A program made the position numbers and the translations under genes. Shown here piece by piece: positions 1 to 32,000 of a DNA stretch of 32,000 nt (positions are counted from its first letter, which is position 1; each line of letters opens with the position of its first letter). The stretch is from Candidatus Saccharimonas sp. (lineage in GTDB: Bacteria; Patescibacteriota; Saccharimonadia; Saccharimonadales; Saccharimonadaceae), in NCBI GenBank assembly GCA_015256915.3, contig CP076101.2, positions 270,001 through 302,000 on the forward strand, read 5' to 3'. The notes under the pieces are model-generated. The model did no database searches. It was not told the origin of the DNA and was given only the letters and a program-made list of their open reading frames with translations.

Positions 1-349
1 TTCCAATAATTTGTTTTCGCGGAACCGGACCAATTTGCTTATAAATAAACCCACCATCTTCATTAATTGTAAGCTTCAGAATATCGCCCTCCACAAGCTT
101 TGATTTCGAAGCATAATTCGCTGGAACTGGGTAATTTTTACCATCTGGACCAATCATAGTTTGACCATCGAAAACACCTTCAATAACTTTGCCATGAGGG
201 CTTTCGATGATGGAATTACTTGGAGCTGTCACGGTGTTATCTTCACCGCTAATGCTTATTAGTAATTCTTTGGCTGCAGCAAGATTAGTTTCCGCTTCTT
301 GAATCAAGCTTTTTAGCCGTTTTACTTGTTTTTCTGGTAATTCAGACAT
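1..349 (-). CDS. hypothetical protein, 5' part only (gene runs off the window start)
   Basis: Minus-strand frame is open from ATG at 349 (MSELPEKQVKRLKSLIQEAETNLAAAKELL...GPDGKNYPVPANYASKSKLVEGD...) to position 1 with no stop. GAGGA at 352-356 lies just upstream. It is missing from the ORF track only because it is truncated. No family recognised. Confidence 0.5.
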   Translation of the reverse strand, partial: MSELPEKQVKRLKSLIQEAETNLAAAKELLISISGEDNTVTAPSNSIIESPHGKVIEGVFDGQTMIGPDGKNYPVPANYASKSKLVEGDILKLTINEDGGFIYKQIGPVPRKQIIG

Positions 350-548
350 ATTCCTCGCATTTTCCTTGTCTGTTTTCTTTTGATATTATCTTTTAAATTC
401 TATCACGAATTAACCTAAAAGTCAATATTTTTATATAATTTTAAGCTAATTTTAAGTTTTCCACAATTTTTAATCTGTTAAATGTAGGATGTTGTAATTT
501 TTACAGAAATGCTTATGTTTATTTTTAATAACGTTTATCGATATTGCA

Positions 549-577
549 TTGACTTTTCAAGACAATAGTTATAATAT
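549..577 (+). promoter_or_regulatory. putative sigma70-type promoter of the pilin gene
   Basis: TTGACT 549-554, 17-nt spacer, TAATAT 572-577 (alternatively TATAAT 570-575 with a 15-nt spacer). The ATG at 584 follows 6 nt later with no Shine-Dalgarno. Hexamer choice is ambiguous. Confidence 0.35.
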
Positions 578-583
578 GAAAAT

Positions 584-1096
584 ATGAATAAGCATAAACT
601 AAATAAAGGTTTTACGATCATTGAAGTCGTTTTGGTTCTTGCGATTGTGGGATTAATTTTTCTTGCTGTTTTTTTAGCTCTTCCCGCTCTTCAACGCAAT
701 CAACGAGATACACAACGTAAAAACGATATGTCACGGTTTAAGGCCGCTTATCATCAATATCGCGCAAACAATAAAGGTTCAAAAATTGGCGGAGTATTCA
801 ACGGTGAGTCTATGAGTAAACTTCCAAATTGGGATAATTTCATTAATGAATATCTTCGAAAAGGTAATGACACTTTTCGTGATCCTCTTGGTGAAGATTA
901 TTTCGTTCAGGAGGGGTTGTGGGATTATGCTCGAGCTGGAGGGGTTGGAACAGGTGTTATTACTATTAAAGATGGCCATGTTTGCGACTATAGTTCTAAT
1001 AAGCCAATCAACCAAAGAATTGTTAGTGGAAATGGTCAAACTGCAAGGATTTGGCTTGAATCTGGTGAGGTTTATTGCTTAGATTTACTTAACTAA
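584..1096 (+). CDS. type IV pilin / pseudopilin-like protein (prepilin N-terminal cleavage-methylation motif)
   Basis: N-terminus MNKHKLNKG/FTIIEVVLVLAIVGLIFLAV has a short basic leader, G-F-T-x-x-E and a hydrophobic helix. Two Cys near the C-terminus (..HVCDYSS....EVYCLD) resemble a pilin disulfide loop. 170 aa. Confidence 0.85.
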   Translation: MNKHKLNKGFTIIEVVLVLAIVGLIFLAVFLALPALQRNQRDTQRKNDMSRFKAAYHQYRANNKGSKIGGVFNGESMSKLPNWDNFINEYLRKGNDTFRDPLGEDYFVQEGLWDYARAGGVGTGVITIKDGHVCDYSSNKPINQRIVSGNGQTARIWLESGEVYCLDLLN

Positions 1097-2647: not shown

Positions 2648-2749
2648 TTTCTGAATCCTCCTCTAAATAAAAGTTCTAGGCAAAAGCTCAGACAATTAAA
2701 CTATAGCAGAAAATATAAGTTTTGTCAATAAAAGGCTTTCGAAAAGCTC

Positions 2750-2788: not shown

Positions 2789-2863
2789 TGGGATGTCGCC
2801 AAGTGGTAAGGCAGCGGGTTCTGGTCCCGCCATTCGGGGGTTCGAATCCCTCCATCCCAGCCA
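2789..2863 (+). tRNA. tRNA-Gln (anticodon CUG), CCA encoded
   Basis: Cloverleaf read by hand: acceptor TGGGATG/CATCCCA, D-arm GCC-AAGTGGTAA-GGC, anticodon stem GCGGG/CCCGC with loop TTCTGGT, T-arm GGGGG-TTCGAAT-CCCTC, discriminator G plus CCA. The U1-A72 pair and overall sequence closely resemble E. coli tRNA-Gln. Confidence 0.93.
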
Positions 2864-2953: not shown

Positions 2954-3214
2954 ATTGTTCCGATCGAGGCAATTTCTGTATAAATTACCTCCGAGGATTA
3001 ATAAAACCGCGTAAAAAATACATACTTTAACAATCTGGCATTATTTAACAGAAGTCTTCCCTTTCGAAAGCAGGCTAATCAATAATAATTTAGAGCTTAA
3101 GCAATTATACTAGGAAACTTCAAAACATAACCTTTAGTGGGCGATTCGAGCTGGATATTGGAGATCCACCCGACCATACTTCAGTTCAAACCGCTCACTA
3201 AAAAGGAACAAATT

Positions 3215-3574
3215 ATGCAAAATACTAACGAAACCGAGTTTGAAAAAGAGCTTGAAAAAATCAAGAACTCTAAAATTGAACTCAAACCAATAAAACAAAA
3301 ACAAGGAGAAAATAAAATGAAAAATATTAAGAAATTTAACTGGAAAAAATTAATCGAAACAACTAAAACAATTGTCATTTATACAGCGGTTATTGCTGGT
3401 TTAGCCTTCTACTTCGGTATGAAACAAGGTGAAGCTAATACAAAAGTAAATAATGACAAATTAGTTGAGGCAATTCAAAATTTCAGTTCTCAGCTCCAGT
3501 GCTGTTTTCTTAACTTTTTCTGCCATATTTCCTCTTTAAATTTACTATTACAAATTTATATTACTAGTAAATAA
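3215..3574 (+). CDS. hypothetical small single-pass membrane protein (start uncertain: 3215 or 3317)
   Basis: The track ORF starts at GTG 3137. In-frame ATG 3215 (MQNTNE..) follows AAAGGA, and ATG 3317 (MKNIKKFNWKK..) follows AAGGAG 3303-3308 at 8-nt spacing. One TM segment is present (IVIYTAVIAGLAFYFGM). The Cys-rich, hydrophobic C-terminal tail looks like read-through into non-coding DNA. Confidence 0.4.
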   Translation: MQNTNETEFEKELEKIKNSKIELKPIKQKQGENKMKNIKKFNWKKLIETTKTIVIYTAVIAGLAFYFGMKQGEANTKVNNDKLVEAIQNFSSQLQCCFLNFFCHISSLNLLLQIYITSK

Positions 3575-3643
3575 CCTAGTTAATGTAGTTGATTTTAAAA
3601 GCTAAAAGATATAAAATCTAAATATAAGAAAGGTATTTATATT

Positions 3644-4081
3644 ATGAATTTTATAGATAAACTAAGAATTAAAAACCTAAATATGCGCCAATATGTTTTA
3701 GGTAACTACGACGGCGACTTCGAAGGAATAGAAGAAATAGTCGCTAAAGCTCGCCTTAAAATTACTTATAATGGTGGCGTAGAACTCCAATTTTCATATG
3801 GTTCAGCTTTTAAATATGAAACTGTACAGACTTTTTCTTGGGAAGAGATTAAAGGCTTCGATTATCGCCAAATTAAAGATTCTGCGGGTAAAAAGACTAA
3901 ATATATTTTCGAAAACATGCTTTACACCACAAAAGGAACCCTAGTATTAAGGGGTGAATATACTAAAGGTGGTAAAATGGGTTCAAATGCTTACACTTAT
4001 GATGGTTTGCTAATGGCTGCTACTAGCGCTAAGAATCGAATTAATGCTTGCTTGAAATTACATAAAAAATACGCCGACTAA
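3644..4081 (+). CDS. hypothetical protein (145 aa)
   Basis: ORF-track frame. AAGAAAGG upstream of ATG 3644. No family recognised. Confidence 0.6.
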   Translation: MNFIDKLRIKNLNMRQYVLGNYDGDFEGIEEIVAKARLKITYNGGVELQFSYGSAFKYETVQTFSWEEIKGFDYRQIKDSAGKKTKYIFENMLYTTKGTLVLRGEYTKGGKMGSNAYTYDGLLMAATSAKNRINACLKLHKKYAD

Positions 4082-4117
4082 ACTATTTCTCAATATAAAT
4101 TAAATGAAAGGATCTAT

Positions 4118-4633
4118 ATGCTAGAAAAACTCACAGGTCAAAAAACTTTTAAGGAAGCTTTTAAAAATGTCGTATGGTTCAAATTCACGGTCATTGCCTT
4201 GGTTGGAATATTTTTAATCGCTAGTGTCGTGCATGCGATCAATAATCCAGCAAAGCCAACCGCTCCAGTAAATACTAACACTCCAGCAAAACCAGATCAG
4301 CAACAAACAGCCAAAACTCCAAAACTGGTAGAAAAAGCGACCTATAACACGGCCTCTGGTATATCTTTTACGGTTAAAAAATCAACCGATTTAGCAAACC
4401 AGCCATATTATAATCTCCAAGCAAATATTTCAAAGAATGACCCAGCTTGGCGCAACAAAGCAAAAGAAGTTATTAAATTCATCAGTGAAAAAACCCAACA
4501 AAAAGACTTCTCAGTTTCTATATCAGATAAATCAACCGGAACAGACTTACTCAACTGGAATACCGGCAAGAATAAAGCAATCTTCTACACCTACCCAGTA
4601 GGATCTAACGAATCTGAAGCTTTCGATCTATAA
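4118..4633 (+). CDS. hypothetical membrane-anchored, probably extracytoplasmic protein (171 aa)
   Basis: AAAGGA precedes ATG 4118. N-terminal TM helix (FKFTVIALVGIFLIASVVHAI) is followed by a P/T/A/Q-rich linker (NPAKPTAPVNTNTPAKPDQQQTAKTPK) and a globular part. No family recognised. Confidence 0.7.
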   Translation: MLEKLTGQKTFKEAFKNVVWFKFTVIALVGIFLIASVVHAINNPAKPTAPVNTNTPAKPDQQQTAKTPKLVEKATYNTASGISFTVKKSTDLANQPYYNLQANISKNDPAWRNKAKEVIKFISEKTQQKDFSVSISDKSTGTDLLNWNTGKNKAIFYTYPVGSNESEAFDL

Positions 4634-4634
4634 T

Positions 4635-4664
4635 CAAAAAACAGACCTTTGTAGGTCTGTTTTA
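4635..4664. terminator. bidirectional rho-independent terminator (convergent 4118..4633 and 4685..4972)
   Basis: Perfect 8-bp stem ACAGACCT (4641-4648) / AGGTCTGT (4653-4660) with 4-nt loop. A6 before and TTT after. Confidence 0.8.
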
Positions 4665-4684
4665 ATTTTACTCGCAAGCAATTT

Positions 4685-4972
4685 TTATTCCAAACTCTCT
4701 TGCATATATCTATATACTATCCTAATTACCTCTTGCACGTCATCGTTAGTGTTTTTATATTGAATATTTTCATACGCTAGCTCTCCATACTCTCTAATAG
4801 CTTCACTAATAAGAGCGTGAATAAAAGATTGAGTCGCTCCATCAACTTTATTAAAATCTAATGTGATTTTTTCACCCTTTGCTAGCATTGGTAAAATTAT
4901 TTCTTCCCGTATTTTTTTAGCTAATTCTTTATTTTCGGCGAAATTACCAACTTCTTTATATAAAATAATCAT
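4685..4972 (-). CDS. STAS-like small protein (DUF4325-type, anti-sigma-antagonist-like fold predicted)
   Basis: 95 aa. The core ..EKITLDFNKVDGATQSFIHALISEAIREYG.. matches the pattern I associate with DUF4325 STAS-like domains (h-x-LDF-x-x-V-x3-S/T-x-SF). Its ATG overlaps the upstream stop as ATGA (4969-4972). Assignment is from motif memory, with no HMM run. Confidence 0.7.
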   Translation of the reverse strand: MIILYKEVGNFAENKELAKKIREEIILPMLAKGEKITLDFNKVDGATQSFIHALISEAIREYGELAYENIQYKNTNDDVQEVIRIVYRYMQESLE

Positions 4973-5934
4973 AGAAATTTAGGCTCCTTGTATTTAGTCC
5001 TTTTACGATCTCGGATAGCATCATCATATACCGAACTTATAAGTTTTAATATAGCTTGAAACTCAGGCGTATTGTCAAGAGACATATCTATAGCCACTAA
5101 AGTACCTTTAAAATCTCCCTCTATGATAGTATATCTATGAGGATCGTCGAATGGATCTATTTTTAATTTAAATATATTATTTCTTTTATCTCCTTTTAAA
5201 AGAGTGTATTCTGCTTTACCAGAAAATATAGTGAAATAACTCCTTGTAATTCGTGCTATAGATTTAGTAAAAAATAGCCCAGCTCCAGCATTATCTCTTG
5301 TTCCACCTTCTTTATGAGTAGTACCTGTAATTCCTGGCATAAGACTAAGCCTAATAGCCGAAATGTCGTCTTTAGGACGCCAATATTCATTCATGCTTTT
5401 CCATATACCAATTCCCGTATCACATATACCTATGCTAATCTTATTTTTTTTAGGATAATAATTAGCCGCAACTACTGCCCCCTTATCAGATAGAGAATGT
5501 TCAAGAACATTTCTAACTAGCTCTCCTATTATATACTTGATAATTCTGCTTTCTTTCTCGGGTAGGTGTAGTAATGGCACCATTTCAGCGATAAATTTAG
5601 ACTGATCATCAGCAGTTTTTACAACCTGTAAAGGTATATATCTTCCAGATGATTCTTTCTTGTTATATCTAAAAGGTGATTCCGTCTTTAGAAAATTAAA
5701 AAGACCCATAGAATCAAGATGTTTCCCGTTATCTGGCAGCGGCAGTTCAATAGAACTATTCTCCTTTCCGGTTTTTATAGCCAAGGCGGCAGTAAAAGCT
5801 AATATGGCTGGATGTACAGTTATCCATTTCTTATGAGTCTCCACCTCTAACGAATCAGGGTTAGAAAAATCAATAGATTTAATAAACCTTGAAAAATTTC
5901 TTAGGTGAGCTTGATTAGATAAAAATATTCTCAT
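4969..5934 (-). CDS. GHKL-superfamily ATPase (anti-sigma-factor / Ser-kinase-like) with an unassigned N-terminal domain of about 130 aa
   Basis: 321 aa. Bergerat-fold motifs are present: N-box GELVRNVLEHS, G1 ICDTGIGI, G2-like RDNAGAGLFF. There is no HisKA/H-box and no TM segment. No Shine-Dalgarno; the ATG sits 6 nt after a consensus -10 box. Confidence 0.8.
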   Translation of the reverse strand: MRIFLSNQAHLRNFSRFIKSIDFSNPDSLEVETHKKWITVHPAILAFTAALAIKTGKENSSIELPLPDNGKHLDSMGLFNFLKTESPFRYNKKESSGRYIPLQVVKTADDQSKFIAEMVPLLHLPEKESRIIKYIIGELVRNVLEHSLSDKGAVVAANYYPKKNKISIGICDTGIGIWKSMNEYWRPKDDISAIRLSLMPGITGTTHKEGGTRDNAGAGLFFTKSIARITRSYFTIFSGKAEYTLLKGDKRNNIFKLKIDPFDDPHRYTIIEGDFKGTLVAIDMSLDNTPEFQAILKLISSVYDDAIRDRKRTKYKEPKFL

Positions 5935-5940
5935 ATTTAA

Positions 5941-5969
5941 ATTATACCCGTAGGTCGTATTTTTGTCAA
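5941..5969 (-). promoter_or_regulatory. perfect-consensus sigma70 promoter, leaderless, for the GHKL/STAS operon
   Basis: On the minus strand: TTGACA (5969-5964), exactly 17 nt, TATAAT (5946-5941), 6 nt, ATG (5934). There is no Shine-Dalgarno. Confidence 0.7.
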
Positions 5970-5987
5970 TATACGACCTACGGGTAT
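5944..5987. repeat. perfect 17-bp inverted repeat (candidate operator or cruciform) overlapping the promoter
   Basis: ATACCCGTAGGTCGTAT (5944-5960) and its exact reverse complement ATACGACCTACGGGTAT (5971-5987), with a 10-nt spacer TTTTGTCAAT that contains the -35 hexamer. One arm fills the promoter spacer and part of the -10. Confidence 0.9.
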
Positions 5988-6174
5988 TTTAATATATTTT
6001 TTCACCCCTACAAATGGTCTATAAATCCTACCCAGCCACAGCTTTTGTCGCCTGCGTTGCAACATCATAAATCGACTTTTTAGCTTGATTCTGTTCTACA
6101 TGCAACATAGTTGATATAGATTGTATTTAACGTATAGCAATAAATATTTTCACGAATATTACAATTAAATTATT

Positions 6175-6338
6175 TTAAAGATAATTTAATCGATCTAAAG
6201 CCTCTGTATTTGATAGAGTCTGAAGAAACTCTTCATTATCTAAAGCGTCTGTGATGTCATTGTAATATCGCTTCACTGAATCGGTTGATTGATTTTTTTT
6301 GCGTAATCTCTAATTGATTGAGACAATTCTTTAAACAT
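6175..6338 (-). pseudogene. small ORF split by an A8 homopolymer (21-aa frame plus 33-aa frame; a 54-aa product if the tract were A9)
   Basis: ATG 6338 gives MFKELSQSIRDYAKKINQPIQ*, with the stop at 6273. One extra A in the A8 run (6293-6300) gives MFKELSQSIRDYAKKNQSTDSVKRYYNDITDALDNEEFLQTLSNTEALDRLNYL*, ending at 6175. TATAAT (6350-6345) lies 6 nt upstream of the ATG and TTCGCA (6373-6368) 17 nt further. Below the ORF-track length cut-off. Confidence 0.3.
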
Positions 6339-6501
6339 AACTAAATTATACTATAAAATAGACTGATTGCGAAATTATTATATAAGATATTATAGTTATT
6401 TATGTTATAGATTAAACTTGCCAACTAAAAATCGAAGGAGTAATCTCTATTTTTCATTTAATTCTGACTAAAATAGAATTGCTTTTATGGAAGTAAATTT
6501 G

Positions 6502-6735
6502 TTATTTTTCAATTTCGAAAATCTTAAATCGCGATTTTATACCAGTCTTTAGGGAGACTCGGCTTTTTGAAACGCCGAATTCTTCTGCCAAAAGTTTAAT
6601 TACTGCCAGATTTGCCTTACCTTCAATTGCTGGCTCACGAATAAAAATCTCAAAAAACTCACCGTTTTTATCTTGTGATTTTTGAATGAGATTTCCTTTT
6701 TTCGAATTTGGCTTAATTTTGCAACGAATCTTCAT
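6502..6735 (-). CDS. DUF167 / YggU-family small protein
   Basis: KIRCKIKPNSKKG....FEIFIREPAIEGKANLAVIKLLAEEFGVSKSRVSLKTGIKSRFKIFEI fits the YggU pattern (P-x-A.., PP-x-x-GkAN, G-x-x-sR-x-K). The start is taken at ATG 6735. The track start 6783 and ATG 6774 are alternatives, and all overlap the end of tgt. Confidence 0.7.
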   Translation of the reverse strand: MKIRCKIKPNSKKGNLIQKSQDKNGEFFEIFIREPAIEGKANLAVIKLLAEEFGVSKSRVSLKTGIKSRFKIFEIEK

Positions 6736-7984
6736 TTTGCTTAGTTTCGAAGTCTTTTGCTCGCTCTTCGCCATAATATTCATTTAAAAATTGGCGCTTA
6801 TATTCAAAAAACGTACCATTTTCAAGGCTTTCGCGGATTTTATCAATGGTATTAATTACGAAAAATTCATTATGAATTGAAGCAAGTGTACTGGCGAGAA
6901 TTTCGTCCGCACGGAAAAGATGATTAACGTAGGCTTTTGTGAAATTTTGGCAAGTGTAGCAATTGCAATTGCTATCAATCGGTGTGAAGTCTTCTTTAAA
7001 CTTGGCGTTTTTAATATTAATTCGCCCAGAATAAGTAAAAATTGCGCCGTTTCGAGCTTGACGAGTTGGTGCCACACAATCGAAAGTGTCGATACCAAAT
7101 TCTACACCTAAAAATAGATCGGCTGGTTGTGCGCCCATTCCTAACAGATGCCGTGGTTTTTCTTCTGGCAAGGTTGTGTTCACCCAAGTTAGAACTTCAG
7201 GGATTTCTTCTGGCTGAAAAATTCCACCAATCCCAAAGCCGTCAAAATCTCTCGAGCCCAAAAAACTTGCGCTTTCTTTTCGAAAATCTTCTTCGCGCGC
7301 ACCTTGAACTACCGCGAAAAGCGCTTGTAGATTTTCGCCTTCTGCAATATGCTCGGCGTTTAACTCATTGTGGCGTTTCAAACACTTTTCAGCCCAAAAA
7401 TGAGTTTTATCCAATGCGGATTTAATTTGTGCACGGCCAGCTAGCGGTGAAGTTAATTCATCAAAAGCCATGTGAATATCGGCGCCAATTTTATGCTGAA
7501 GCTCCATTGAAATTTCGGGGCTCATAAAAATCTTTTCGCCCGAAATGTGAGATTTAAACCAAACTCCGTCTTCGCCAACTTTTGCGAGCTGATTTGAATT
7601 ATGGCGTGCTAAATTTGAATCACCCTTCGAAATGTGTGAAGTTGCATCAATTCCCTTTTTGTAAGCCATTCCAAGTGAAAAAACTTGAAAACCGCCTGAA
7701 TCAGTAAAGGTTGGTGCACTCCAATTCATAAACTTATGGATTCCGCCAGCTTTTGCTAGAATATCTGCACCAGGCCGAAGCATTAGATGGTAGGTATTTG
7801 CTAGTACGGCCTGCGCACCAGTTGAGCGGATTTGCTCGGGCGTCATTGCCTTCACTGTTGCATTAGTTCCGCCTGCAATATAAGCTGGGGTTTTAATTTC
7901 ACCGTGCGGAGTTTGAATTACACCAGTTCTTGCCAAAGTGCCATTGAGGCGAGTTTTAATTTCGAAACTTAAAGCTTTTTTCAT
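6713..7984 (-). CDS. tgt: queuine tRNA-ribosyltransferase
   Basis: 423 aa with the hallmark motifs FTDSGGFQV, LLGMGAQPADL, DTFDCVAPTRQARNG and the zinc site CNCYTC...H. Confidence 0.95.
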   Translation of the reverse strand: MKKALSFEIKTRLNGTLARTGVIQTPHGEIKTPAYIAGGTNATVKAMTPEQIRSTGAQAVLANTYHLMLRPGADILAKAGGIHKFMNWSAPTFTDSGGFQVFSLGMAYKKGIDATSHISKGDSNLARHNSNQLAKVGEDGVWFKSHISGEKIFMSPEISMELQHKIGADIHMAFDELTSPLAGRAQIKSALDKTHFWAEKCLKRHNELNAEHIAEGENLQALFAVVQGAREEDFRKESASFLGSRDFDGFGIGGIFQPEEIPEVLTWVNTTLPEEKPRHLLGMGAQPADLFLGVEFGIDTFDCVAPTRQARNGAIFTYSGRINIKNAKFKEDFTPIDSNCNCYTCQNFTKAYVNHLFRADEILASTLASIHNEFFVINTIDKIRESLENGTFFEYKRQFLNEYYGEERAKDFETKQNEDSLQN

Positions 7985-8056
7985 CTGTTAAAGTATAACA
8001 TATAAATGTTTTTTTTGCAATTTAAAAACCGCCCAGAAGAGCGATTTTTAAGAATA

Positions 8057-8482
8057 TTATTCAGCAATTTCAACACCCATTGAACGAGCTGTTCCGGCGA
8101 TAGTTTTCATAGCACCTTCAAGTGAAACTGCGTTCAAGTGTTCCATTTTAGCTTCAGCAATTTCTTGCAATTGAGCTTTTGTAATTTTGCCAACTTTGTC
8201 AGTTTTTGAATTTCCTGCACCTTTTTGGATTCCTGCTCGGTCTCGAATCATATCATCAACTGGTTGACCAAGTGATTTCCAAGTGAAAGTTCGGTCTTCG
8301 AAAACCTGAAGGTGAACAATTACATCTTTACCCATCATATCTTTAGTTTTTTCATTAAATGGGTTGATGAAGTCCATCATATTTAGACCCCATTGACCAA
8401 GTGTTGAACCAACTGGAGGACCTGCTGTTGCGCGGCCAGCTGGGATTCGAAGTTTCAAATTTCCAATAACTTTTTTTGCCAT
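8057..8482 (-). CDS. rplK: 50S ribosomal protein L11 (uL11)
   Basis: MAKKVIGNLKLRIPAGRATAGPPVGSTLGQWGLNMMDF... is canonical L11. 141 aa. Confidence 0.97.
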   Translation of the reverse strand: MAKKVIGNLKLRIPAGRATAGPPVGSTLGQWGLNMMDFINPFNEKTKDMMGKDVIVHLQVFEDRTFTWKSLGQPVDDMIRDRAGIQKGAGNSKTDKVGKITKAQLQEIAEAKMEHLNAVSLEGAMKTIAGTARSMGVEIAE

Positions 8483-8534
8483 AATTTCCCTTTAAATAAT
8501 TTTATACTTGATAATTCAAGTGCGTAACGTATTA

Positions 8535-8563
8535 ATTTTAGCATATTTTTTTTAAAATTTCAA
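8535..8563 (-). promoter_or_regulatory. putative rplK promoter with extended -10
   Basis: Minus strand: TTGAAA (8563-8558), 17 nt, TGC-TAAAAT (8543-8535). This leaves a leader of about 45 nt to ATG 8482, with AAGGGA as Shine-Dalgarno. Confidence 0.55.
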
Positions 8564-8748
8564 GCTTCAATTCATTTATTTTAGGACTATTAACTCATTG
8601 TGTAAAATTTTGTGAAGATTGTTCGACGGAAAATTACGAATATGAAAATGTGATTAGCGTGAAAAATATTGTTAAAATACATTGCTTGTAAGAAATGGCA
8701 TTAGTTTAATATAAACCTCTATAGCCCTCAGCTTTGCTATGCTTTTTC

Positions 8749-8777
8749 TTGTCTTTAATTTTTAACTATGCTATAAT
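8749..8777 (+). promoter_or_regulatory. putative promoter of the nucleotidyltransferase-like gene (extended -10)
   Basis: TTGTCT 8749-8754, 17 nt, TGC-TATAAT (8769-8777). GGAGG at 8794-8798 lies 7 nt before ATG 8806. Confidence 0.5.
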
Positions 8778-8805
8778 TTTAAAATCACGCTTTGGAGGTT
8801 TAAAA

Positions 8806-9315
8806 ATGGAAAATCGTGAAGTACTTGAAGTTCTAAAAGATTTTGGGCGGGTTTATATTGTGGGAAGTTTTGCAATATATAAAGCTCTCTGCATTGATTC
8901 TGCTCAAAATAACGATATTGATATTGTGGTAAAAACAAATATAGCTGTCTCACAAATTCGTAAACGGCTTGAAGATCTGGGTGGAACTTTTGTCGAAAAT
9001 AATAATCACAAAGGCTTTCGAATTAACTATCGCGGACAACTTTTTGATATTTGGAGAATCAAAGATACGGATGCGATTTTTGAACAAGGCTTTGAGCGAA
9101 AGTATCATAATATTACAGATCTAATTTCGTCATTCGGTTTCAATCTTTACCAGGTTTGTATTTGTGTCGAAGATGGGATGATTCTAGCAACACCTGAATT
9201 TCACAAATATTCTCGAACACAAGAACTTGAACTTATTAATCATAATTTATCAAATCCTGAGTATATGATAGATAAAGCTCTTAGGATTAATAAAAACGTT
9301 GTTTCCAAAAAGTAA
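8806..9315 (+). CDS. minimal nucleotidyltransferase-fold protein (Pol-beta superfamily-like), 169 aa
   Basis: The start is reassigned to ATG 8806 (GGAGG Shine-Dalgarno); the track start 8734 is a TTG inside the promoter. The motif VYIVGSFAIYKALCIDSAQNNDIDIVV fits hG[GS]-x(9-15)-DhDh, with a later acidic residue in LFDIW. Family call is from the motif only. Confidence 0.55.
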   Translation: MENREVLEVLKDFGRVYIVGSFAIYKALCIDSAQNNDIDIVVKTNIAVSQIRKRLEDLGGTFVENNNHKGFRINYRGQLFDIWRIKDTDAIFEQGFERKYHNITDLISSFGFNLYQVCICVEDGMILATPEFHKYSRTQELELINHNLSNPEYMIDKALRINKNVVSKK

Positions 9316-9321
9316 TTTTTT

Positions 9322-9346
9322 TCTCGCTGAATTTGGCGAGATTTTT
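9322..9346 (+). terminator. rho-independent terminator of the nucleotidyltransferase-like gene
   Basis: Stem TCTCGC (9322-9327) / GCGAGA (9336-9341), 8-nt loop, then TTTTT. Confidence 0.65.
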
Positions 9347-9361
9347 AATTTAAGCCAAATT

Positions 9362-9388
9362 AAAACGCTCAATTCTGAGCGTTTTTTT
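9362..9388. terminator. bidirectional terminator (serves nusG on the minus strand)
   Basis: 10-bp stem AAAACGCTCA (9362-9371) / TGAGCGTTTT (9376-9385), 4-nt loop, T-run on both strands. It lies 18 nt beyond the nusG stop (9406). Confidence 0.75.
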
Positions 9389-9405
9389 AGTTTTCGAAAT
9401 TAAAA

Positions 9406-9948
9406 TTAGATTTTTTCAATTTGAAGAATATCAAGCTCAACTGGAGTTTCGCGACCAAACATTGAAACCATTACTTTAATTTTACCTTTCACGGCGTCAA
9501 TCTCAGAAACTGCACCTTCGAAACCTTTGAATGGTCCATCAATAATATTGATAATTTCACCTTCAGAAAAGTTAATTTCAAACATTGGTTCTTCGGCACC
9601 CATTCGGCGGCGAATATCGCGCATTTCTTTTTCGGAAACTGGTGTTGGTGAATCTGAGCCAATAAATCCAGTCACGCCTGGCGTGTTTCGAACAACAAAC
9701 CAAGTCTCCTCGGTTAATTTCATTTCAACTAAAACATAACTTTGTAAAATTTTTCGTTCAACAACTTTGCGTTTTCCATTTCTAACTTCAATCTGCTTCT
9801 CTTTTGGAACAAGCGTGTCGAAGATTTTATCGGCCATATCTACGCCTTCAATTCGTTGACGAAGATTTTCCGCAACTTTGTCTTCATATCCCGCTAAAGT
9901 TGTAACCGCATACCAGTTTCGGGAATCATCATATCGTTTATTTGCCAT
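9406..9948 (-). CDS. nusG: transcription termination/antitermination factor NusG
   Basis: N-terminal NGN signature WYAVTTLAGYEDKV, and a C-terminal KOW (GEIINIIDGPFKGFEGAVSEID..GKIKVMVSMFGRETPVEL). 180 aa. Confidence 0.95.
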   Translation of the reverse strand: MANKRYDDSRNWYAVTTLAGYEDKVAENLRQRIEGVDMADKIFDTLVPKEKQIEVRNGKRKVVERKILQSYVLVEMKLTEETWFVVRNTPGVTGFIGSDSPTPVSEKEMRDIRRRMGAEEPMFEINFSEGEIINIIDGPFKGFEGAVSEIDAVKGKIKVMVSMFGRETPVELDILQIEKI

Positions 9949-9963
9949 AAATACCTTTCAAAA

Positions 9964-10347
9964 TTACTTAATTAGTGTTTTAAAAATCCAGTTAAACAAG
10001 CCGTCTAGCAATAAAATTAATGTCGCAAACCCTATAGAAAATGCAATTACGGCACTAGTCATTTTCCAAGTTTCTTTGCGGGTTGGCCAGCGAACGAGTT
10101 TTAGTTCTTTCCAGGAAGCTACTAAATATTTACCAAGTGCAACAAATGGAATTGTAACGAATCTAAACGGTTTCGTTAAAATTCGCACAAATTTTGGTGC
10201 CGGTTTTTTGGCTTTTTTCTCTGTTTTGATGCCAGCAACTTTTGCAGCATATTTGCTTATTTTTAGCTCTTTCGAAACTTCTTTTTCAGGCTTCGATTTT
10301 GCGTTTTTTGCCTTAACGCGAGTTACTTTGGTTTCTTTCTTCGCCAT
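9964..10347 (-). CDS. secE: preprotein translocase subunit SecE with a long Lys-rich N-terminal extension
   Basis: C-terminal ..ELKLVRWPTRKETWKMTSAVIAFSIGFATLILLLDGLF is the SecE signature plus its TM helix. It sits immediately upstream of nusG, as in most bacteria. AGGAGA Shine-Dalgarno. Confidence 0.85.
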   Translation of the reverse strand: MAKKETKVTRVKAKNAKSKPEKEVSKELKISKYAAKVAGIKTEKKAKKPAPKFVRILTKPFRFVTIPFVALGKYLVASWKELKLVRWPTRKETWKMTSAVIAFSIGFATLILLLDGLFNWIFKTLIK

Positions 10348-10365
10348 CTTTCTCCTATTCCAAAA

Positions 10366-10385
10366 TTAAAAAGCCTATTAGGCTT
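10366..10385 (-). terminator. short hairpin terminator after the histidine kinase gene
   Basis: Stem AAGCCT (10371-10376) / AGGCTT (10380-10385), 3-nt loop, then UUUUU in minus-strand RNA. The small loop and stem make it only moderate. Confidence 0.45.
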
Positions 10386-10438
10386 GATATGTCAAGTATA
10401 CCATAAAATTTTTAAAAAAGCAAAAAATATGCAAAAAT

Positions 10439-11734: not shown

Positions 11735-11741
11735 AACCATA

Positions 11742-11770: not shown

Positions 11771-11777
11771 TTTTAAA

Positions 11778-21280: not shown

Positions 21281-21289
21281 ATCTATATA

Positions 21290-21318
21290 ATTATAACACA
21301 CCATATTTTTTTATGCAA
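21290..21318 (-). promoter_or_regulatory. putative tig promoter (extended -10, near-leaderless)
   Basis: Minus strand: TTGCAT (21318-21313), 17 nt, TGT-TATAAT (21298-21290), 9 nt, ATG 21280. There is no Shine-Dalgarno. Confidence 0.6.
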
Positions 21319-21417
21319 AAAGAGTACTAATAAATGCTCAATAGTTTAGGAATATGCAGTCCTCATTTATAAAAATTAAAAAGATATAAAAACAAACTAT
21401 TTTTATCTAATGAATAA

Positions 21418-21993: not shown

Positions 21994-23581
21994 TTCGAAC
22001 CGATTTCACTAATTCTTTAGTGTTTGGGCGACCTTTTACACTAGGGTTCAAAATATGCATTGGGTCGAAAATATCTTTAATCTGTGAATATAATTCTTCA
22101 ATTTCTTCACTGATATTTCTTGCAACAAAATGACCATAAATTCGCCCTTCACCCGCACCATACGCAAATTCACCATCAACTTTTGCAAGTAAAGCACCAA
22201 GGTCGGCGATGAATTTTAGTGATTTTTGACGGTCGCTAATTTTCGAAAAGTCGAATTCAGCTAGAATTTCAAAAATAGAGGTTAGCGCTGAACCTTGAAT
22301 TGGTGCGGGAATACTGTGTTGTAAGGCAAGTTTTTGAAGCCCTAGATAGAAAGTTTCGAAACGCTCCATTGGCACATAAACACCTTGAATTGGGTAAATT
22401 TCTTGCTTGATTACGCCGCTCCTTGCTCGCAAAATTTCACGAACATCACGAATTGCTTCAAGTTCAGCTTTTGAACGTTCATCGTCTTCTGGAATCCAAA
22501 CGGTTGCACCTTCAAATTTCTTGGCAATTTTTTCAATTTTATGTATTTTTGATGTAATTTTCTTCGCACTTTTATCTGAAATTCCAACAACTAAAACTAA
22601 TTTCGTGGCTAAATTTTGTGAATTCCTGTCAAGATAAAATTGGTATTTTTTACCAGAAGCAACTGCAGCTTCAAACATCTTGCCATCAAATAATTCAACA
22701 ATATCTGGTGTGAATTTAGTGATTTCATCGTTAAAATCACGCGCATCATCTCGATTTGAAAAACTTACAACCATAAAATTGGTCTCATTAATTATGTAAT
22801 TTGTTTGAATTTTTGCCTCGGTGATAATTCCTAGAGTTCCGAGCGAACCAAAAAACAACGGAATCAAATTGAACGTTCCATCTTCACTTTTTACATTTAC
22901 AATTCCAGAATAGCCGAAGCTAGAATCGCTATCGATTTGCTGAATTAAACTGTAATTATCTTCAATCAAAGTATCAATTTTGCGATAAATCTCTCCTTCA
23001 AAATTAGAAAGTGCGATTTTTTCGCTTAATTCCTTGCGGGAAATTTTTCCAATGTTAATAATATCGCCATTACTTAAGATAACTTCTGCTTCGCTAACGG
23101 AATTTACTAAGTCACCATAATTAAATTTTTCGCTTGGCAAATTCATTGCAATCGCCCCACCAACTGTAAGCCTTTCGCCAGCTGGACTTTGTGGAATTTC
23201 CATCGCTTGTGATGCAATTGCAAGATTCAATTTTTGAAAATTCGCCCCGGCTTGAACCTGAACGGTTTTAGCTCGTAAATCAAGCTCTTTAACTTTATTA
23301 AGATGTCGCGAAATATCTAATATAATTCCTCTTCCAATTGAAGAGCCATCGGTACTTCCGCCGTAGCCTCTCGCCGTAACACCAAAAATATGGCCCTTTT
23401 CAGCTAACTGCCAAGAAAACCGCATAATTTTTTGAATATCTTCACTAAAACGCGGGTAAACCACTAATTCTGGTTGAATTTTAAGAAAACTTCGGTCGGT
23501 TGAAAACTGCTTCAATCGAGTTTCGCGTGCCGAAACTTCGCCAATAATGTGTCCATTTAGATATTTCGCAATTTTACTCAT
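21983..23581 (-). CDS. FAD-binding oxidoreductase (FAD_binding_4 / GlcD-like)
   Basis: PCMH-type FAD domain: VVYPRFSEDIQKIMRF...VTARGYGGSTDGSSIGRGIILDISRHLNKV. The start is set at ATG 23581 (MSKIAKY..), 7 nt after a -10 box; the track start is a TTG at 23617. Confidence 0.85.
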   Translation of the reverse strand: MSKIAKYLNGHIIGEVSARETRLKQFSTDRSFLKIQPELVVYPRFSEDIQKIMRFSWQLAEKGHIFGVTARGYGGSTDGSSIGRGIILDISRHLNKVKELDLRAKTVQVQAGANFQKLNLAIASQAMEIPQSPAGERLTVGGAIAMNLPSEKFNYGDLVNSVSEAEVILSNGDIINIGKISRKELSEKIALSNFEGEIYRKIDTLIEDNYSLIQQIDSDSSFGYSGIVNVKSEDGTFNLIPLFFGSLGTLGIITEAKIQTNYIINETNFMVVSFSNRDDARDFNDEITKFTPDIVELFDGKMFEAAVASGKKYQFYLDRNSQNLATKLVLVVGISDKSAKKITSKIHKIEKIAKKFEGATVWIPEDDERSKAELEAIRDVREILRARSGVIKQEIYPIQGVYVPMERFETFYLGLQKLALQHSIPAPIQGSALTSIFEILAEFDFSKISDRQKSLKFIADLGALLAKVDGEFAYGAGEGRIYGHFVARNISEEIEELYSQIKDIFDPMHILNPSVKGRPNTKELVKSVRNGK

Positions 23582-26753: not shown

Positions 26754-26782
26754 ATTTTACCACATGTTTTCGAAAATTCCAA
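26754..26782 (-). promoter_or_regulatory. putative promoter of the TMEM175-like gene
   Basis: Minus strand: TTGGAA (26782-26777), 17 nt, TGG-TAAAAT (26762-26754). The short leader contains AAGGGA before ATG 26736. Confidence 0.45.
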
Positions 26783-27738: not shown

Positions 27739-27909
27739 CAATTCTCCCTTAAATTATTTTAATATTTTCACTTTTTCGAAAGTTGATAAAGTTTTCAAAA
27801 AAAGCGCCTCATATTTTTCGAAACAGCATTTTCGAAAAATGTCTTTACCTTTCTAGCTGAAATAACCAACACACAGGTTTATTCACCAGAAAGAGGAAAC
27901 TCACTAGAT

Positions 27910-27938
27910 ATTTTAGCAGATTTCGAAACAAAATGCAA
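27910..27938 (-). promoter_or_regulatory. putative rpsL-rpsG promoter (extended -10) with a leader of about 160 nt
   Basis: Minus strand: TTGCAT (27938-27933), 17 nt, TGC-TAAAAT (27918-27910). The spacer contains a TTTCGAAA copy. Confidence 0.55.
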
Positions 27939-29083: not shown

Positions 29084-30193
29084 TTAAATGACGATTCCGC
29101 CACCCAAACAAACTTCACCAGAATAAAATACAACACTTTGGCCACTAGTAATTGCGCGTTGTTCATCTTGCAATTCAATTTTTGCCAAATTATCACTTTC
29201 GAAAAAGATTTTTGCATTCACGAGTGGCGCACGATGGCGGATTCGAACTTGAATTTCTGCCCCATTTTCAACTTTTTGGCTGATCCAGTGAAGTGCTGAA
29301 ACTTCGATTTTATTAGACCAAAGTTCGCCGTTATTAATATCAGTCGTTACGAAAACTTCGTTAGTTTCCATATTTTTACCACAAACATAAAATGGTAGTC
29401 CGCCGCCAATATTTAAGCCGTGGCGCTGACCTAAAGTGTAAAAAATCGCACCGTCGTGCCAACCGAGAACTTCGCCTGTATTTTTGTTAATGATTTTTCC
29501 TGGTTTTTGTTCGGGGATAAATTGTTTTAGAAAATCACGAATTCCAATTTTTCCAACAAAGCAAATTCCTTGTGAATCTTTTTTTTGAGCAGTAAAAAGC
29601 CCGCGCTCTTTCGCCATCTCGCGCACTTCAGGTTTAGTAAATTTACCAAGTGGAAACAAAGTTCGTCCCAAAGCCTCACCTCGCACACGATACAAAAAAT
29701 AAGTTTGGTCTTTATTTTCATCTTTTGCGCGAAGTAGCTCGCCTTTTCCACTTTTCGAAAGGTTGAAATTTTCGTCAGAATTTTCAGTAAAAGCATTTCG
29801 AACGCCAGCGTAATGGCCTGTTGCAATTAGATCGGCTCCATCTTCAAGTGCAGCCTCTAAGAAAAGCTTAAATTTTACTTCTTGATTACACATTATATCG
29901 GGGTTTGGTGTGCGGCCAATTTCGTATTCGTCAAGCATATATTGCACAACTTTTTCGCGGTAGTGTTTTTCGAAATCAAAAACTTTAAAATCAATGCCCA
30001 GCTGAACCGCAACTCTTTTTGCGTCGGCCAAATCTTCTGCCCAAGGACATTTCATTCCTGGTAAATCTTGCGTCCAGTTTTTCATATAAACGCCCACAAC
30101 GTTATATCCTTGCTCTTTTAAAAGTGCCGCAGTTAAAGATGAGTCTACGCCACCACTCATTCCAACATATACTTTAATTTTTGAATTATCCAT
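29084..30193 (-). CDS. mnmA: tRNA-specific 2-thiouridylase MnmA
   Basis: PP-loop VGMSGGVDSS, CPWAEDL.., NPDIMCN, and catalytic Cys in SQGICFVG. 369 aa. Confidence 0.95.
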   Translation of the reverse strand: MDNSKIKVYVGMSGGVDSSLTAALLKEQGYNVVGVYMKNWTQDLPGMKCPWAEDLADAKRVAVQLGIDFKVFDFEKHYREKVVQYMLDEYEIGRTPNPDIMCNQEVKFKLFLEAALEDGADLIATGHYAGVRNAFTENSDENFNLSKSGKGELLRAKDENKDQTYFLYRVRGEALGRTLFPLGKFTKPEVREMAKERGLFTAQKKDSQGICFVGKIGIRDFLKQFIPEQKPGKIINKNTGEVLGWHDGAIFYTLGQRHGLNIGGGLPFYVCGKNMETNEVFVTTDINNGELWSNKIEVSALHWISQKVENGAEIQVRIRHRAPLVNAKIFFESDNLAKIELQDEQRAITSGQSVVFYSGEVCLGGGIVI

Positions 30194-30808
30194 TTATTCT
30201 CCTATATAAAATCTAAAAATTCCAAAAAGCTCGCTCATCGAGAGATACCAACCGCGTGAATTTGTCCACCAAAATCCATTCCAATCTGGATCATTCAAAA
30301 CTGGTGCCGAAATCACCTCTACGCCCGAACCTTCTAGAGCTTTTTCGAATTCGAGTCTTGCTCGAGTTTGATGATATTTTGAAGTGGTTAGAGTTACGCG
30401 CTTATAGCCATTTTGCTTAATTATTTTTGCAGTAAATTGTGCATTTTGGTGAGTGTTTTGAGCCTTTTCTTCGAGTAAAATTTCTTCTTCTAAAACTCCT
30501 TGTTTTCGGGCTAAATTAGCCATTTGGCGCGCATCGCTTAAAACTTTAGGATTAGAGTTTGCACCTGAAAAAATCAACTTTTTAGCTTCAACCGATTTAA
30601 AAATTTCAATTGCCTCGCGAGTTCTTAAAGCAGTATTTCCGCCAGAAATCGCTATAACTGCATCAATTTTTTGAGAACATTCGCCTTTTTTGTAGTTTGG
30701 GCAAATTTCGGCGAGCCGATTTTTATCGCTAATAATTAAAGTTGCGCTAATAATAAAAACCGCAACTAAACCCACAAAGGCTAAAATCCAGGCAATAAAT
30801 TTTACCAT
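30194..30808 (-). CDS. DUF218 (YdcF/ElyC/SanA-like) membrane-anchored protein
   Basis: N-terminal TM helix, then AVIAISGGNT...LIFSGAN...VTLTTSKYHQTRA, typical of DUF218. There is zero intergenic distance to both neighbours. Confidence 0.8.
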   Translation of the reverse strand: MVKFIAWILAFVGLVAVFIISATLIISDKNRLAEICPNYKKGECSQKIDAVIAISGGNTALRTREAIEIFKSVEAKKLIFSGANSNPKVLSDARQMANLARKQGVLEEEILLEEKAQNTHQNAQFTAKIIKQNGYKRVTLTTSKYHQTRARLEFEKALEGSGVEVISAPVLNDPDWNGFWWTNSRGWYLSMSELFGIFRFYIGE

Positions 30809-31984
30809 TTATTTTTGAATCCTCTTAAATTCAGCTTGCACAGTTTTCGAAATTATTTCAGCTGCACGCTTTATGTTTTCTTCATTCGAAAGTTTTCCTA
30901 GCGAGATTCGCAAGCTTCCATCGGCCTCAGAATCGCTCAAGCCCATTGCGGTTAAAGTGTGCGAACGTGTACCTTTATTTGCTGCACAAGCTGAACCTGT
31001 TGCCACTAAAACCCCTTGCGTTTCGAGTGCAAAAACCATCCGCTCGGCGTCAATTCCGGGAAAAGATACTGAAATGTGGCTTGCAAGCTGTTTTTTTGGA
31101 TTTCCAAGAAAAATTATTTCTTCATTCGAAAAGTTTTCGCTTAAAGTTTTTTTGAATAATTCCTTTAATTTTCGAAGGCGTTCATTTTCTTTTTTGCGAT
31201 GCTTTTCTGCCAATTGAATAGCTTTCGCAAAACCAATTACACTTGGTACATTTTCAGTTCCGCTTCGCAGATTTCGCTCTTGTCCGCCGCCCACAATTTG
31301 TGCATTAAATTCAATTTCGCGATTAGCCCACAAAAGACCAGTTTGTTTTGGCCCATAAATCTTGCCAGCGTTTAAAGTTAGCATATCTACGCCAAGTCTT
31401 GCAACTGAAATATCCAGTTGACCAACACCTTGACTAGCATCAGAATGGAGATAAATCGGCGTTTTTTCACCATTTGAAAGCCGTCGCATTCGTTCTTCTC
31501 GTACAATTTCGGCAATTTTCGAAATTGGCTGAATTACACCCGTTTCATTATTTGCAAGCATTACTGAAACAATCTTTGTTTTTGGCGAAATTTTTGCACG
31601 TAAATCTTCAAGGTCTATTATGCTATCTTTTTTAATTCTTACAAGTTTTTGGATACCGTATTTTTTGGCTGAATTCAAAACCGCGTGATGCTCAAATTCA
31701 CCAACCAAGATTTCATCGCCATTTTCTTTCGAAGCTGCTGAAAATGCTAAATTAATGCTTTCAGTTGCTCCAGCTGTAATCACAATTTCATCGCTTTTTG
31801 CGCCAATATTTTGCGCAATTTGATGTTTTGCGTCCTCATAGTCTCTTCGAACATCCAAAGCTTGAACATAAGGCGCACTTGGATTGTAGAATTTTTCACT
31901 AAAATATGGCAACATCGCAGCCAAAACTTTTTCACTCACCGGTGTTGTGGCGGCATGGTCAAGATAAATAATTTCCTCGTTCAT
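30809..31984 (-). CDS. iscS: cysteine desulfurase, IscS/NifS/YrvO type (class V aminotransferase)
   Basis: IYLDHAATTP, HSDASQGVG, PLP-lysine context LNAGKIYGPKQTG, and active-site Cys in ATGSACAAN. The start is set at ATG 31984 (MNEEIIYLD..), 7 nt after TGT-TATACT (32000-31992); the track start is a TTG at 31990. Confidence 0.92.
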   Translation of the reverse strand: MNEEIIYLDHAATTPVSEKVLAAMLPYFSEKFYNPSAPYVQALDVRRDYEDAKHQIAQNIGAKSDEIVITAGATESINLAFSAASKENGDEILVGEFEHHAVLNSAKKYGIQKLVRIKKDSIIDLEDLRAKISPKTKIVSVMLANNETGVIQPISKIAEIVREERMRRLSNGEKTPIYLHSDASQGVGQLDISVARLGVDMLTLNAGKIYGPKQTGLLWANREIEFNAQIVGGGQERNLRSGTENVPSVIGFAKAIQLAEKHRKKENERLRKLKELFKKTLSENFSNEEIIFLGNPKKQLASHISVSFPGIDAERMVFALETQGVLVATGSACAANKGTRSHTLTAMGLSDSEADGSLRISLGKLSNEENIKRAAEIISKTVQAEFKRIQK

Positions 31985-32000
31985 CTTCAATAGTATAACA

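Follow-up and report, generated by a model that had tools for sequence, protein, structure and literature searches.

A hyper-abundant palindrome of the HIP/uptake-sequence kind, TTTCGAAA, in DNA of a Candidatus Saccharimonas species complex

Highly iterated palindromes (HIPs) are known to reach ~1000–2000 copies per Mb, and every genome having such a word also has a methyltransferase specific for the word or a sub-word (Elhai 2015, PMC4390886). The octamer HIP1 (GCGATCGC) shows a long-range, 10–90 kb periodic distribution (Xu 2018, PMC5861425), and its sites are conserved by selection, not replenished through biased repair (PMC5861425). HIP1, methylated by Slr0214, boosts transformation up to >100-fold, an effect that depends on methylation (bioRxiv 10.1101/2024.09.10.611283), and enhancement by HIP1 of conspecific DNA uptake or recombination was recently reported in cyanobacteria (bioRxiv 10.1101/2024.09.10.611283; 10.64898/2026.06.24.733823). 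The DNA uptake sequences (DUS) of Neisseriaceae and the uptake signal sequences (USS) of Pasteurellaceae are comparably dense, at ~1–3 copies per kb in coding and intergenic DNA, and are poorer in recently acquired DNA (PMC1939737, PMC1626085). Here, we describe the palindrome TTTCGAAA, which fills a 32,000-nt window assigned via a DnaB-based scan to an uncultured Candidatus Saccharimonas (Saccharibacteria/TM7, Candidate Phyla Radiation (CPR)). It belongs to the HIP/uptake-sequence kind and is new for the CPR, being neither HIP1 nor a classical DUS or USS; our literature search found no paper tying TTCGAA, or any uptake- or HIP-like word, to Saccharibacteria or the CPR.

The window, by which we mean this whole stretch, has a GC content of 35.0%, and our gene model comprises 37 open reading frames (ORFs), 28.5 kb of coding DNA and 3457 bp of intergenic DNA. 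Exact counting gave 93 copies of the hexamer TTCGAA (2.9 per kb), 48 of TTTCGAAA, 12 of the 10-mer TTTTCGAAAA and two of TTTTTCGAAAAA, where a zero-order model predicts 10.9, 1.2 and 0.12 for the first three. A preliminary description of this DNA, counted by hand, had put the hexamer at ~90 with half of the copies inside the octamer, against some 10 and 1 expected, and the exact figures bear this out. TTCGAA is the most over-represented 6-bp palindrome in the window (8.5×; the runners-up reach ~4× on counts of 3–4), and TTTCGAAA leads all octamers whichever composition model is applied (order-2 Markov: 48 vs. 7.8, z = 14), a first rank that it also holds in two other Saccharibacteria loci, L002 and L165. 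Its observed/expected (O/E) ratio in the window is 41.6 at order 0, 9.9 at order 1, 6.2 at order 2 and 4.7 at order 3. Lengthening the window by ~9 kb at either side gave 50.2 kb of contiguous sequence in which the density was maintained (145 TTCGAA, 86 octamers); across the window, this extension and L002, the octamer O/E spans 42–93 (order 0) and 6–7 (order 2), with densities of 1500, 1712 and 2202 copies per Mb, respectively. As with HIP1, then, an 8-bp palindrome is the leading octamer, at 1500–2200 copies per Mb compared to 1000–2000 in the HIP class. Within the 15–300× reported for HIPs, however, its enrichment ranks low, and TTTCGAAA is AT-rich (25% GC vs. at least 50–100% in known HIPs) and resides not in a cyanobacterium but in a member of the CPR/Patescibacteria with a much smaller genome.

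The preliminary description had named a maximal-order Markov model as a check. This expectation is almost reached in the window (81 vs. 93 for TTCGAA and 44 vs. 48 for the octamer); given that the sub-words TTCGA and TCGAA carry the same enrichment, the null is uninformative, and lower-order Markov models and codon shuffles were used in its place.

The enriched unit extends beyond the hexamer. Given the inner bases, the preference for T/A grows outward to position ±4 (odds ratio (OR) 4.1 in the window, 3.1 in L002) and is gone by ±5 (OR 1.5 and 1.1), and the two halves of the palindrome are statistically independent. The unit under selection is the 8-bp palindrome TTTCGAAA, and its width and independent half-sites are as expected for a symmetric dimeric reader. 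The earlier treatment of TTCGAA as an AsuII/BstBI-type site holds for the hexamer core, which we take to be the target of such enzymes, but not for the functional unit, which is the octamer instead; we know of no restriction enzyme for the latter. Restriction targets are normally avoided in host genomes, whereas TTCGAA is strongly enriched. Since TTTCGAAA is its own reverse complement, it cannot carry orientation, unlike an asymmetric, replication-co-oriented Chi-like hotspot, and its occurrence in both orientations, a property of DUS and USS, is trivial; an orientation-free Chi-like effect, such as proposed for HIP1, may exist. Separately, several other 6-bp palindromes (GGATCC, CCATGG, CCTAGG, GACGTC, and CGTACG) have 0 copies each in the window with ~3 expected each, which may reflect restriction avoidance, the counts being too small to judge in 32 kb.

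The word is distributed over coding and non-coding DNA alike, with 82 hexamers in coding sequences (2.87 per kb) and 11 in intergenic DNA (3.18 per kb; 1.15 sites expected), in line with the comparable densities claimed earlier. The positions are as follows (palindromic octamers are given without strand):

Octamer TTTCGAAA, start positions in the window: 1865, 1937, 2737, 3062, 3907, 6513, 7278, 7960, 9392, 10270, 10606, 10831, 11195, 11357, 13374, 13614, 13974, 14152, 15013, 15077, 16261, 17655, 18315, 18978, 19274, 20180, 20384, 20513, 21144, 21969, 22241, 22354, 23754, 23943, 24484, 24959, 26662, 26768, 27130, 27774, 27816, 27830, 27921, 29197, 29753, 29968, 30845, 31517
2737..2744, intergenic octamer
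3062..3069, intergenic octamer
6513..6520, octamer, intergenic by our gene model; gene calls of other strains place it inside a small PF1765-like ORF
9392..9399, intergenic octamer downstream of nusG
26768..26775, intergenic octamer inside the 10-mer TTTTCGAAAA at 26767
27774..27928 (155 bp), four octamers upstream of rpsL, at 27774, 27816, 27830 and 27921
2789..2863, plus strand, tRNA-Gln, whose T-loop supplies TTCGAA at 2841, counted among the 11 intergenic hexamers

The seven intergenic octamer coordinates of the preliminary description are all correct. By scan statistic, the grouping of the foursome upstream of rpsL falls short of significance (P = 0.07), and its consideration as a regulatory array was dropped. 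The claim that sites occur in nearly every gene was too generous, as at least one site is present in 27 of the 37 genes; five of the ten site-free genes fall in strain-variable DNA.

All three frames are used (30, 20, and 32 coding sites in frames 0, 1, and 2), encoding Phe-Glu, x-Arg-x, and x-Ser-Lys/Asn, and the excess persists under the codon-shuffled null proposed earlier. Shuffling synonymous codons with the proteins preserved leaves 29.5 ± 4.9 sites compared to the 82 observed in coding sequences (z = 10.6), and shuffling codon order leaves 21.8 ± 4.6 (z = 13.1). In the window, TTC is chosen for Phe in 48% of cases before Glu and 24% elsewhere, and TCG for Ser in 43% before Lys/Asn after a T-ending codon and 12% elsewhere. 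Synonymously attainable sites are occupied at 38–39% in the window and in its closest comparison locus, L001 (94% nucleotide identity across the core), and at 59% in L002, vs. 4–10% elsewhere (8% in L007, a relative of similar GC content). The Phe-Glu dipeptide is over-represented 1.5–1.6× in the window, L001 and L002, 1.3× in L007, and at most 1.0× in other relatives, which suggests that the DNA word has shifted protein sequences, much as DUS and USS measurably distort the proteome.

A compositional or coding artefact, produced by codon usage, dipeptides (Phe-Glu, Ser-Lys, x-Arg-x), CpG or A/T-tract context, or a multicopy repeat or mobile element, could draw on the nearly reached maximal-order expectation, on the Phe-Glu excess and on the one tRNA T-loop site, the sole site with an independent explanation. 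Both shuffles, the use of all frames and an intergenic excess of ~10-fold speak against it, as the preliminary description had already judged of codon and dipeptide bias; moreover, no larger repeat family carries the word in the window, and it is absent in relatives with similar GC content and the same proteins (L007: 12 sites). Being lineage-specific, the excess of the dipeptide more probably results from the word than causes it. We regard an artefact of this kind as excluded, with next to no probability left to it.

Among relatives, the enrichment is all-or-none, with the word present in the window and L001, in L002 and in L165, and lacking in L003–L008 and L010:

L002: DnaB 82% identical, GC 44%, 88 TTCGAA in 21 kb, 47 TTTCGAAA
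L007: DnaB 81% identical, GC 37%, 12 TTCGAA in 21 kb, 3 TTTCGAAA
L003–L006, L008, and L010: DnaB 57–79% identical, GC 44–53%, TTCGAA at or below expectation, 0–1 TTTCGAAA

None of ~70 outgroup loci was enriched, and the motif-free relatives show no substitute hyper-abundant octamer or ‘dialect’ palindrome. A metagenome scan added at least one case, the Saccharibacterium L165 (a 171-kb contig), the other matches listed being local repeats. The window, L002 and L007 are about equidistant from one another (64–69% amino acid identity over eight shared genes), with the window slightly nearer to the motif-free L007. The trait is therefore patchy, being present in the species complex, the distant relative L002 and the metagenome-assembled genome (MAG) L165 and absent from equally related lineages. 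Orthologous sites common to the window and L002 number 12 (of 42 in the window and 51 in L002), and the sites have accumulated independently in the two lineages.

This bears on the idea that the word is a non-equilibrium relic of a past drive, the responsible gene being lost by now in the species complex and the word in decay. The window and L002, at 64% amino acid identity, retain 39–59% occupancy at mostly unshared sites; given that synonymous sites must be saturated between them, sustained gain in each lineage is required and a pure relic is unlikely. The strain comparisons below supply further points on either side.

Turnover is observable within the species complex. The window and L001 have 52 sites in common, with 12 found only in the window and 11 only in L001, and 12 of the 17 single-base motif differences between them are transitions at the central CpG. 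Differences among strains are rarer at the outer T/A positions than at this CpG, and between the window and L001 the hexamer is conserved at 0.81 compared to a background of 0.68. Given that divergence within the species is dominated by transitions (827 vs. 126 transversions), we used multi-strain alignments and limited the mutation comparisons to synonymous third positions, taking singletons as young and outgroup-polarised changes as older. Strain sets were gathered through exact-protein look-ups of NusG and S7, which also showed the species complex to be abundant in two ENA sample series with contigs of 200–374 kb. The strains from the first look-ups were ≥99.9% identical and hence useless for polymorphism; the final alignments comprise 12.9 kb in 12 strains and 18 kb in 11 strains (~20 strains overall) and span positions 6500–19350 and 20200–32000 of the window plus flank. 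Sites in the conserved core turn over yet are preferentially kept, and 23 of 56 are fixed among 12 strains:

6085..23159, no strand, conserved core used for strain comparisons, with TGT, rplK, nusG, secE, a PAS-His kinase, DnaB, DnaX, DUF2797, an AddA-like helicase-nuclease, and following genes

The losses and gains in motif context compared as follows:

Loss, young singletons: motif 12/61 vs. other CpGs 123/516 (OR 0.78, P = 0.53)
Gain, young singletons: motif 5/46 vs. other CpG-creating changes 182/1665 (both 10.9%; OR 0.99)
Loss, outgroup-polarised: motif 6/59 vs. other CpGs 110/387 (OR 0.285, P = 0.002)
Gain, outgroup-polarised: motif 6/52 vs. CpG-creating changes 118/1335 (not significant), and vs. 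other weak-to-strong (W>S) changes 208/4162 (P = 0.046)

Singletons in motif context thus behave like any CpG/TpG context, and there is no mutational drive. Whole-motif singleton losses exceed gains (22 vs. 9, P = 0.03), which indicates that mutation alone erodes the word. Among the outgroup-polarised changes, third-position gains and losses balance at six each, and the gain/loss rate ratio is 1.13 in motif context compared to 0.31 for generic CpGs, a 3.6-fold shift. Segregating alleles that form the motif are also somewhat more frequent (0.61) than C/G alleles in general (0.475; one-sided P ≈ 0.03). Polarised retention without a drive among young variants points to a bias that acts after mutation; on this sequence evidence, the pattern would be the signature of a word kept by post-mutational fixation or transmission bias, a conclusion matching that of Xu et al. 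on HIP1 (PMC5861425). Known HIP1 sites and TTTCGAAA sites are also alike in falling both within and between genes and in every frame, in not being driven by codons and in their patchiness, the retention of TTTCGAAA being better than that of other CpGs only. With DUS and USS, the likeness would be maintenance by transmission bias rather than by mutation.

The same figures weigh on the relic idea. The excess of young losses, with motif CpGs mutating at the ordinary CpG rate in singletons, is what a decaying word would show, while the balance of polarised gains and losses and the better retention of motif CpGs relative to other CpGs run counter to decay. Together with the high occupancy in both lineages, this makes a relic quite improbable.

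They also bear on methyltransferase-linked mismatch correction biased toward the motif, without a role in uptake. Here, a methyltransferase specific for TTCGAA/TTTCGAAA would be paired with a mismatch-specific nuclease or glycosylase, either Vsr-like or as in Elhai's methyl-directed mismatch repair, and T:G or other mismatches would be resolved in favour of the motif; if active mainly on recombination heteroduplexes, it would amount to biased gene conversion and so to a fixation bias. Recognition of the type II methyltransferase sort typically involves palindromes such as this 8-mer, a patchy distribution suits mobile methyltransferase genes, and the predominance of CpG transitions among the window-L001 differences, the 3.6-fold shift in the gain/loss ratio, frequent recombination and the equal enrichment of a resident mobile element (both described below) all fit. 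Such a model was put forward for HIPs by Elhai 2015 (PMC4390886), whereas for HIP1 a case against biased repair was made by Xu et al. 2018 (PMC5861425). On the other hand, motif-creating T>C changes are not raised among singletons, and CpG-specific repair would leave the lower divergence of the outer T/A positions unexplained. The one-mismatch neighbours TTTGAA and TTCAAA are not depleted either (O/E 2.66 in the window vs. 2.04 in the non-enriched L007), the enrichment being relative to all neighbour classes and not to the CpG-transition neighbours alone. In E. coli, very-short-patch (VSP) repair by Dcm/Vsr raises CCWGG over CTWGG by less than ~2-fold and the words that are deamination products are depleted. 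VSP repair is a precedent in that a sequence-specific repair bias can raise the target word of a methyltransferase, but both the missing depletion and the missing T>C excess set TTTCGAAA apart from it. The reading of the preliminary description, an HIP1-like or uptake-like hyper-abundant palindrome, stands on the frame, intergenic and shuffle nulls, while a mutation-level, VSP-type repair drive finds no counterpart in neighbour depletion or in young motif-creating mutations. No Vsr or 5-methylcytosine (m5C) methyltransferase was seen in ~75 kb of the species complex. Overall, we consider biased correction unlikely.

CpG sites in general are 2.2–2.7× more prone to C>T/G>A changes than other C/G at synonymous positions (P = 6 × 10^−12), and the CpG dinucleotide is over-represented (odds 1.23) despite this high mutability. 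Such mutability would fit methylation of cytosines in some target that contains CpG, and to that extent biased correction (2.7-fold), or else codon-level selection. A hot spot at the motif C was weighed as evidence of m5C and rejected: the raw singleton rate is 2.4× background, an excess largely gone at synonymous third positions.

Direct selection at each site for a function unrelated to gene transfer, such as binding of a nucleoid- or chromosome-organising protein or strand-discrimination marks for mismatch repair, spaced so that each mismatch has one nearby, is to us about as improbable as biased correction. The preferential keeping of existing sites and the presence of the word in resident mobile DNA agree with it, as does a density near the ~1 per kb that Elhai deemed apt for methyl-directed repair (PMC4390886), and Xu et al. 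2018 inferred selection and a nucleoid-structure role for HIP1 (PMC5861425). Close relatives that share the lifestyle and the order of genes are entirely without the word, however, so that such a function must be either dispensable or specific to the lineage. The spacing is random rather than regular (coefficient of variation 1.06), and the free turnover, with fewer than half of the sites fixed among strains and 12 common with L002, better fits a weak per-site advantage or a drive.

Recombination in the population is heavy. Linkage disequilibrium decays within ~500 bp and four-gamete incompatibility climbs from ~20–25% to ~45% by 1 kb, the rapid decay indicating short tracts. The competence-related gene dprA, along with recR and ybaB, lies directly outside the window and pilin-like genes are present, while experiments on other, cultivated Saccharibacteria have shown natural transformation that depends on ComEC (PMC10633639). 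The setting would recall both HIP1, whose host is naturally transformable, and the DUS/USS systems with their type IV pili, ComEC and DprA, with competence shown by experiment in other Saccharibacteria only. In our methyltransferase screen, a match to RsmD was set aside as an rRNA methyltransferase, and an NPPY motif in a secreted protein of L002 as a chance match and false lead. Methylation of TTCGA(m6A)A has been seen in an environmental MAG (bioRxiv 10.64898/2026.06.24.734251).

Recently acquired DNA is depleted in the word, as is the case for DUS and USS, and the core-versus-accessory comparison suggested earlier comes out in this direction, with 2.18 sites per kb in variable islands compared to 3.36 in the core across ten strains. 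Within the window, a 2.8-kb island holds two sites vs. 8.7 expected (Poisson P = 0.008) and contains the longest motif-free gap:

3299..6084, no strand, strain-specific accessory island with three small ORFans, DUF4325 and a HATPase-like gene, without counterpart in L001 and with other content in other strains
584..1096, plus strand, type IV pilin-like gene with a Pfam N_methyl match only

The preliminary description had called an uptake role conceivable in view of the pilin gene, and this piece of it is weakened. The gene is missing from the motif-rich L001, L133, L136, L137, and L139–L142, that is, from most other motif-rich strains, and a search of the PDB matched the N-terminal pilin helix only. 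Accessory and of generic similarity, it is no evidence for an uptake receptor, and we rejected it as a DUS receptor; in Neisseria, DUS is read by a dedicated receptor, the minor pilin ComP, whereas this gene is dispensable for the enrichment.

Taken together, we tentatively read TTTCGAAA as a HIP-class ‘genomic watermark’, read by a dimeric protein and held in place by recombination-coupled transmission bias, to which we assign a rough probability of 40%. Under this reading, a sequence-specific dimeric protein of the lineage would recognise TTTCGAAA as an 8-bp unit, and the word would have been driven to ~1.5–2.2 copies per kb throughout resident DNA. The bias would act after mutation, most likely through recombination-coupled transmission, with fragments or alleles that carry the word, probably methylated, being preferentially taken up or recombined. 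Motif-bearing alleles would then spread and motif-destroying alleles stay rare, while newly arrived foreign DNA would start motif-poor. We infer the reader protein, the methylation of the word and the route of the bias, by uptake or recombination, from these patterns.

A more specific version, in which TTTCGAAA tags self-DNA for natural transformation, an orphan methyltransferase marks it and the competence or recombination machinery favours marked DNA, strikes us as possible though doubtful. By analogy with HIP1 and Slr0214, methylation-dependent self-recognition, in which a short and frequent palindromic target marks self, would account at once for a palindromic word, its patchiness and a drive acting after mutation. 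Methylation-dependent self-recognition also operates in Campylobacter jejuni through CtsM and RAATTY. RAATTY is frequent largely through base composition, whereas TTTCGAAA stands 40–90× over composition.

Several points weigh against the transmission-bias reading. The retention rests on small counts (6/59) and is significant only when compared to other CpGs, not to non-CpG C/G (P = 0.69), and the contrast between young and older changes is itself marginal (by our estimate, z ≈ 1.8). The Poisson-like spacing is random and not even, and apparent recombination may be inflated by chimeras of strains in metagenome assemblies. Both DUS and USS consist of asymmetric 9–12-mers with family-wide ‘dialects’, whereas TTTCGAAA is palindromic and patchy and sister lineages have no dialect of it. 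Genes for DNA methyltransferases, restriction endonucleases or Vsr-like proteins were absent on a screen of Pfam lists and catalytic motifs that covered ~75 kb from the species complex (not genome-wide, the genome being guessed near 1 Mb) and 21 kb of L002, and thus there was no cognate orphan methyltransferase of the kind known for HIPs. No uptake receptor or other reader protein was found among the genes of the same ~75 kb, other pilins outside it not having been examined. Lastly, an integrated element encoding a rolling-circle Rep and a serine recombinase is at full motif density (3.9–4.3 per kb), which an intracellular process explains more easily than an uptake drive.

This element sits in a hot spot of integration, hypervariable and bounded by the TGT/PF1765-like genes and by dprA (~520–6085 in the window; ~13450–18000 in L133–L142), the content of which differs in almost every strain. 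Its cargo includes the pilin-like gene and the DUF4325 and HATPase-like pair in the window, an SNase in L134 and L141, a DnaJ in L137, and the integrated element, with its REP_ORF2-G2P rolling-circle Rep, in L133, L136, and L139. The pair (4685–5934), a DUF4325 (STAS-like) protein beside a 321-aa protein with a weak HATPase_c match, is present in some strains only and makes up an accessory module of two genes, possibly related to defence. A 20-nt inverted repeat with 95% complementarity and a 4-nt loop (5944–5987), exactly at the island border, may be a terminator or an attachment/recombination site. Elsewhere, the PAS-HisKA-HATPase sensor kinase at 10439–11740 of the window is split into two ORFs in L141 (8208–9510), likely a pseudogene or an assembly error.

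Viral contigs matching a triple-octamer pattern were set aside, being mostly local repeats. One of them, L132 (IMGVR_UViG_3300020567_000331, 15 kb), was considered as a motif-rich phage and left unused as evidence, as its enriched word is TCGA (259 copies, ~5× composition) and its viral nature is doubtful; it has 78 TTCGAA without specifically favouring the octamer. It encodes a phage-type RNA ligase, a YkuD transpeptidase and ORFans, carries an IS605 TnpB remnant (11267–12554) without the word, and shares no protein similarity with the Saccharibacteria loci. A 111-kb viral contig, L118 (IMGVR_UViG_3300044959_000237, GC 39%), contains a different palindrome, TTCCGGAA, 51 times and TTCGAA 96 times in a 12-kb locus, with AATGTTCC and GGAACATA among the frequent companion words; TTCCGGAA may be a further word of the HIP sort, or else a repeat that is dispersed.

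For 30 years, HIP1 has puzzled researchers and seemed peculiar to cyanobacteria, and an independent, AT-rich case in a distant phylum would turn it into a class. If the self-DNA tag reading is true, the HIP1 phenomenon would have originated a second time, independently, implying that hyper-abundant palindromes arise generally wherever the target of a methyltransferase becomes coupled to transformation. Motif-rich and motif-free lineages share gene order, which provides a clean comparative design to find the responsible gene. For metagenomic contigs and mobile elements of the lineage, TTTCGAAA is a strong signature for binning and host assignment. Saccharibacteria are epibiotic, with small genomes, naturally competent and now genetically tractable, and donor DNA given (methylated) TTTCGAAA sites could improve the transformation of these hard-to-manipulate bacteria. 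A self-DNA tag, if true, would give the CPR its first specificity signal for uptake or transformation.

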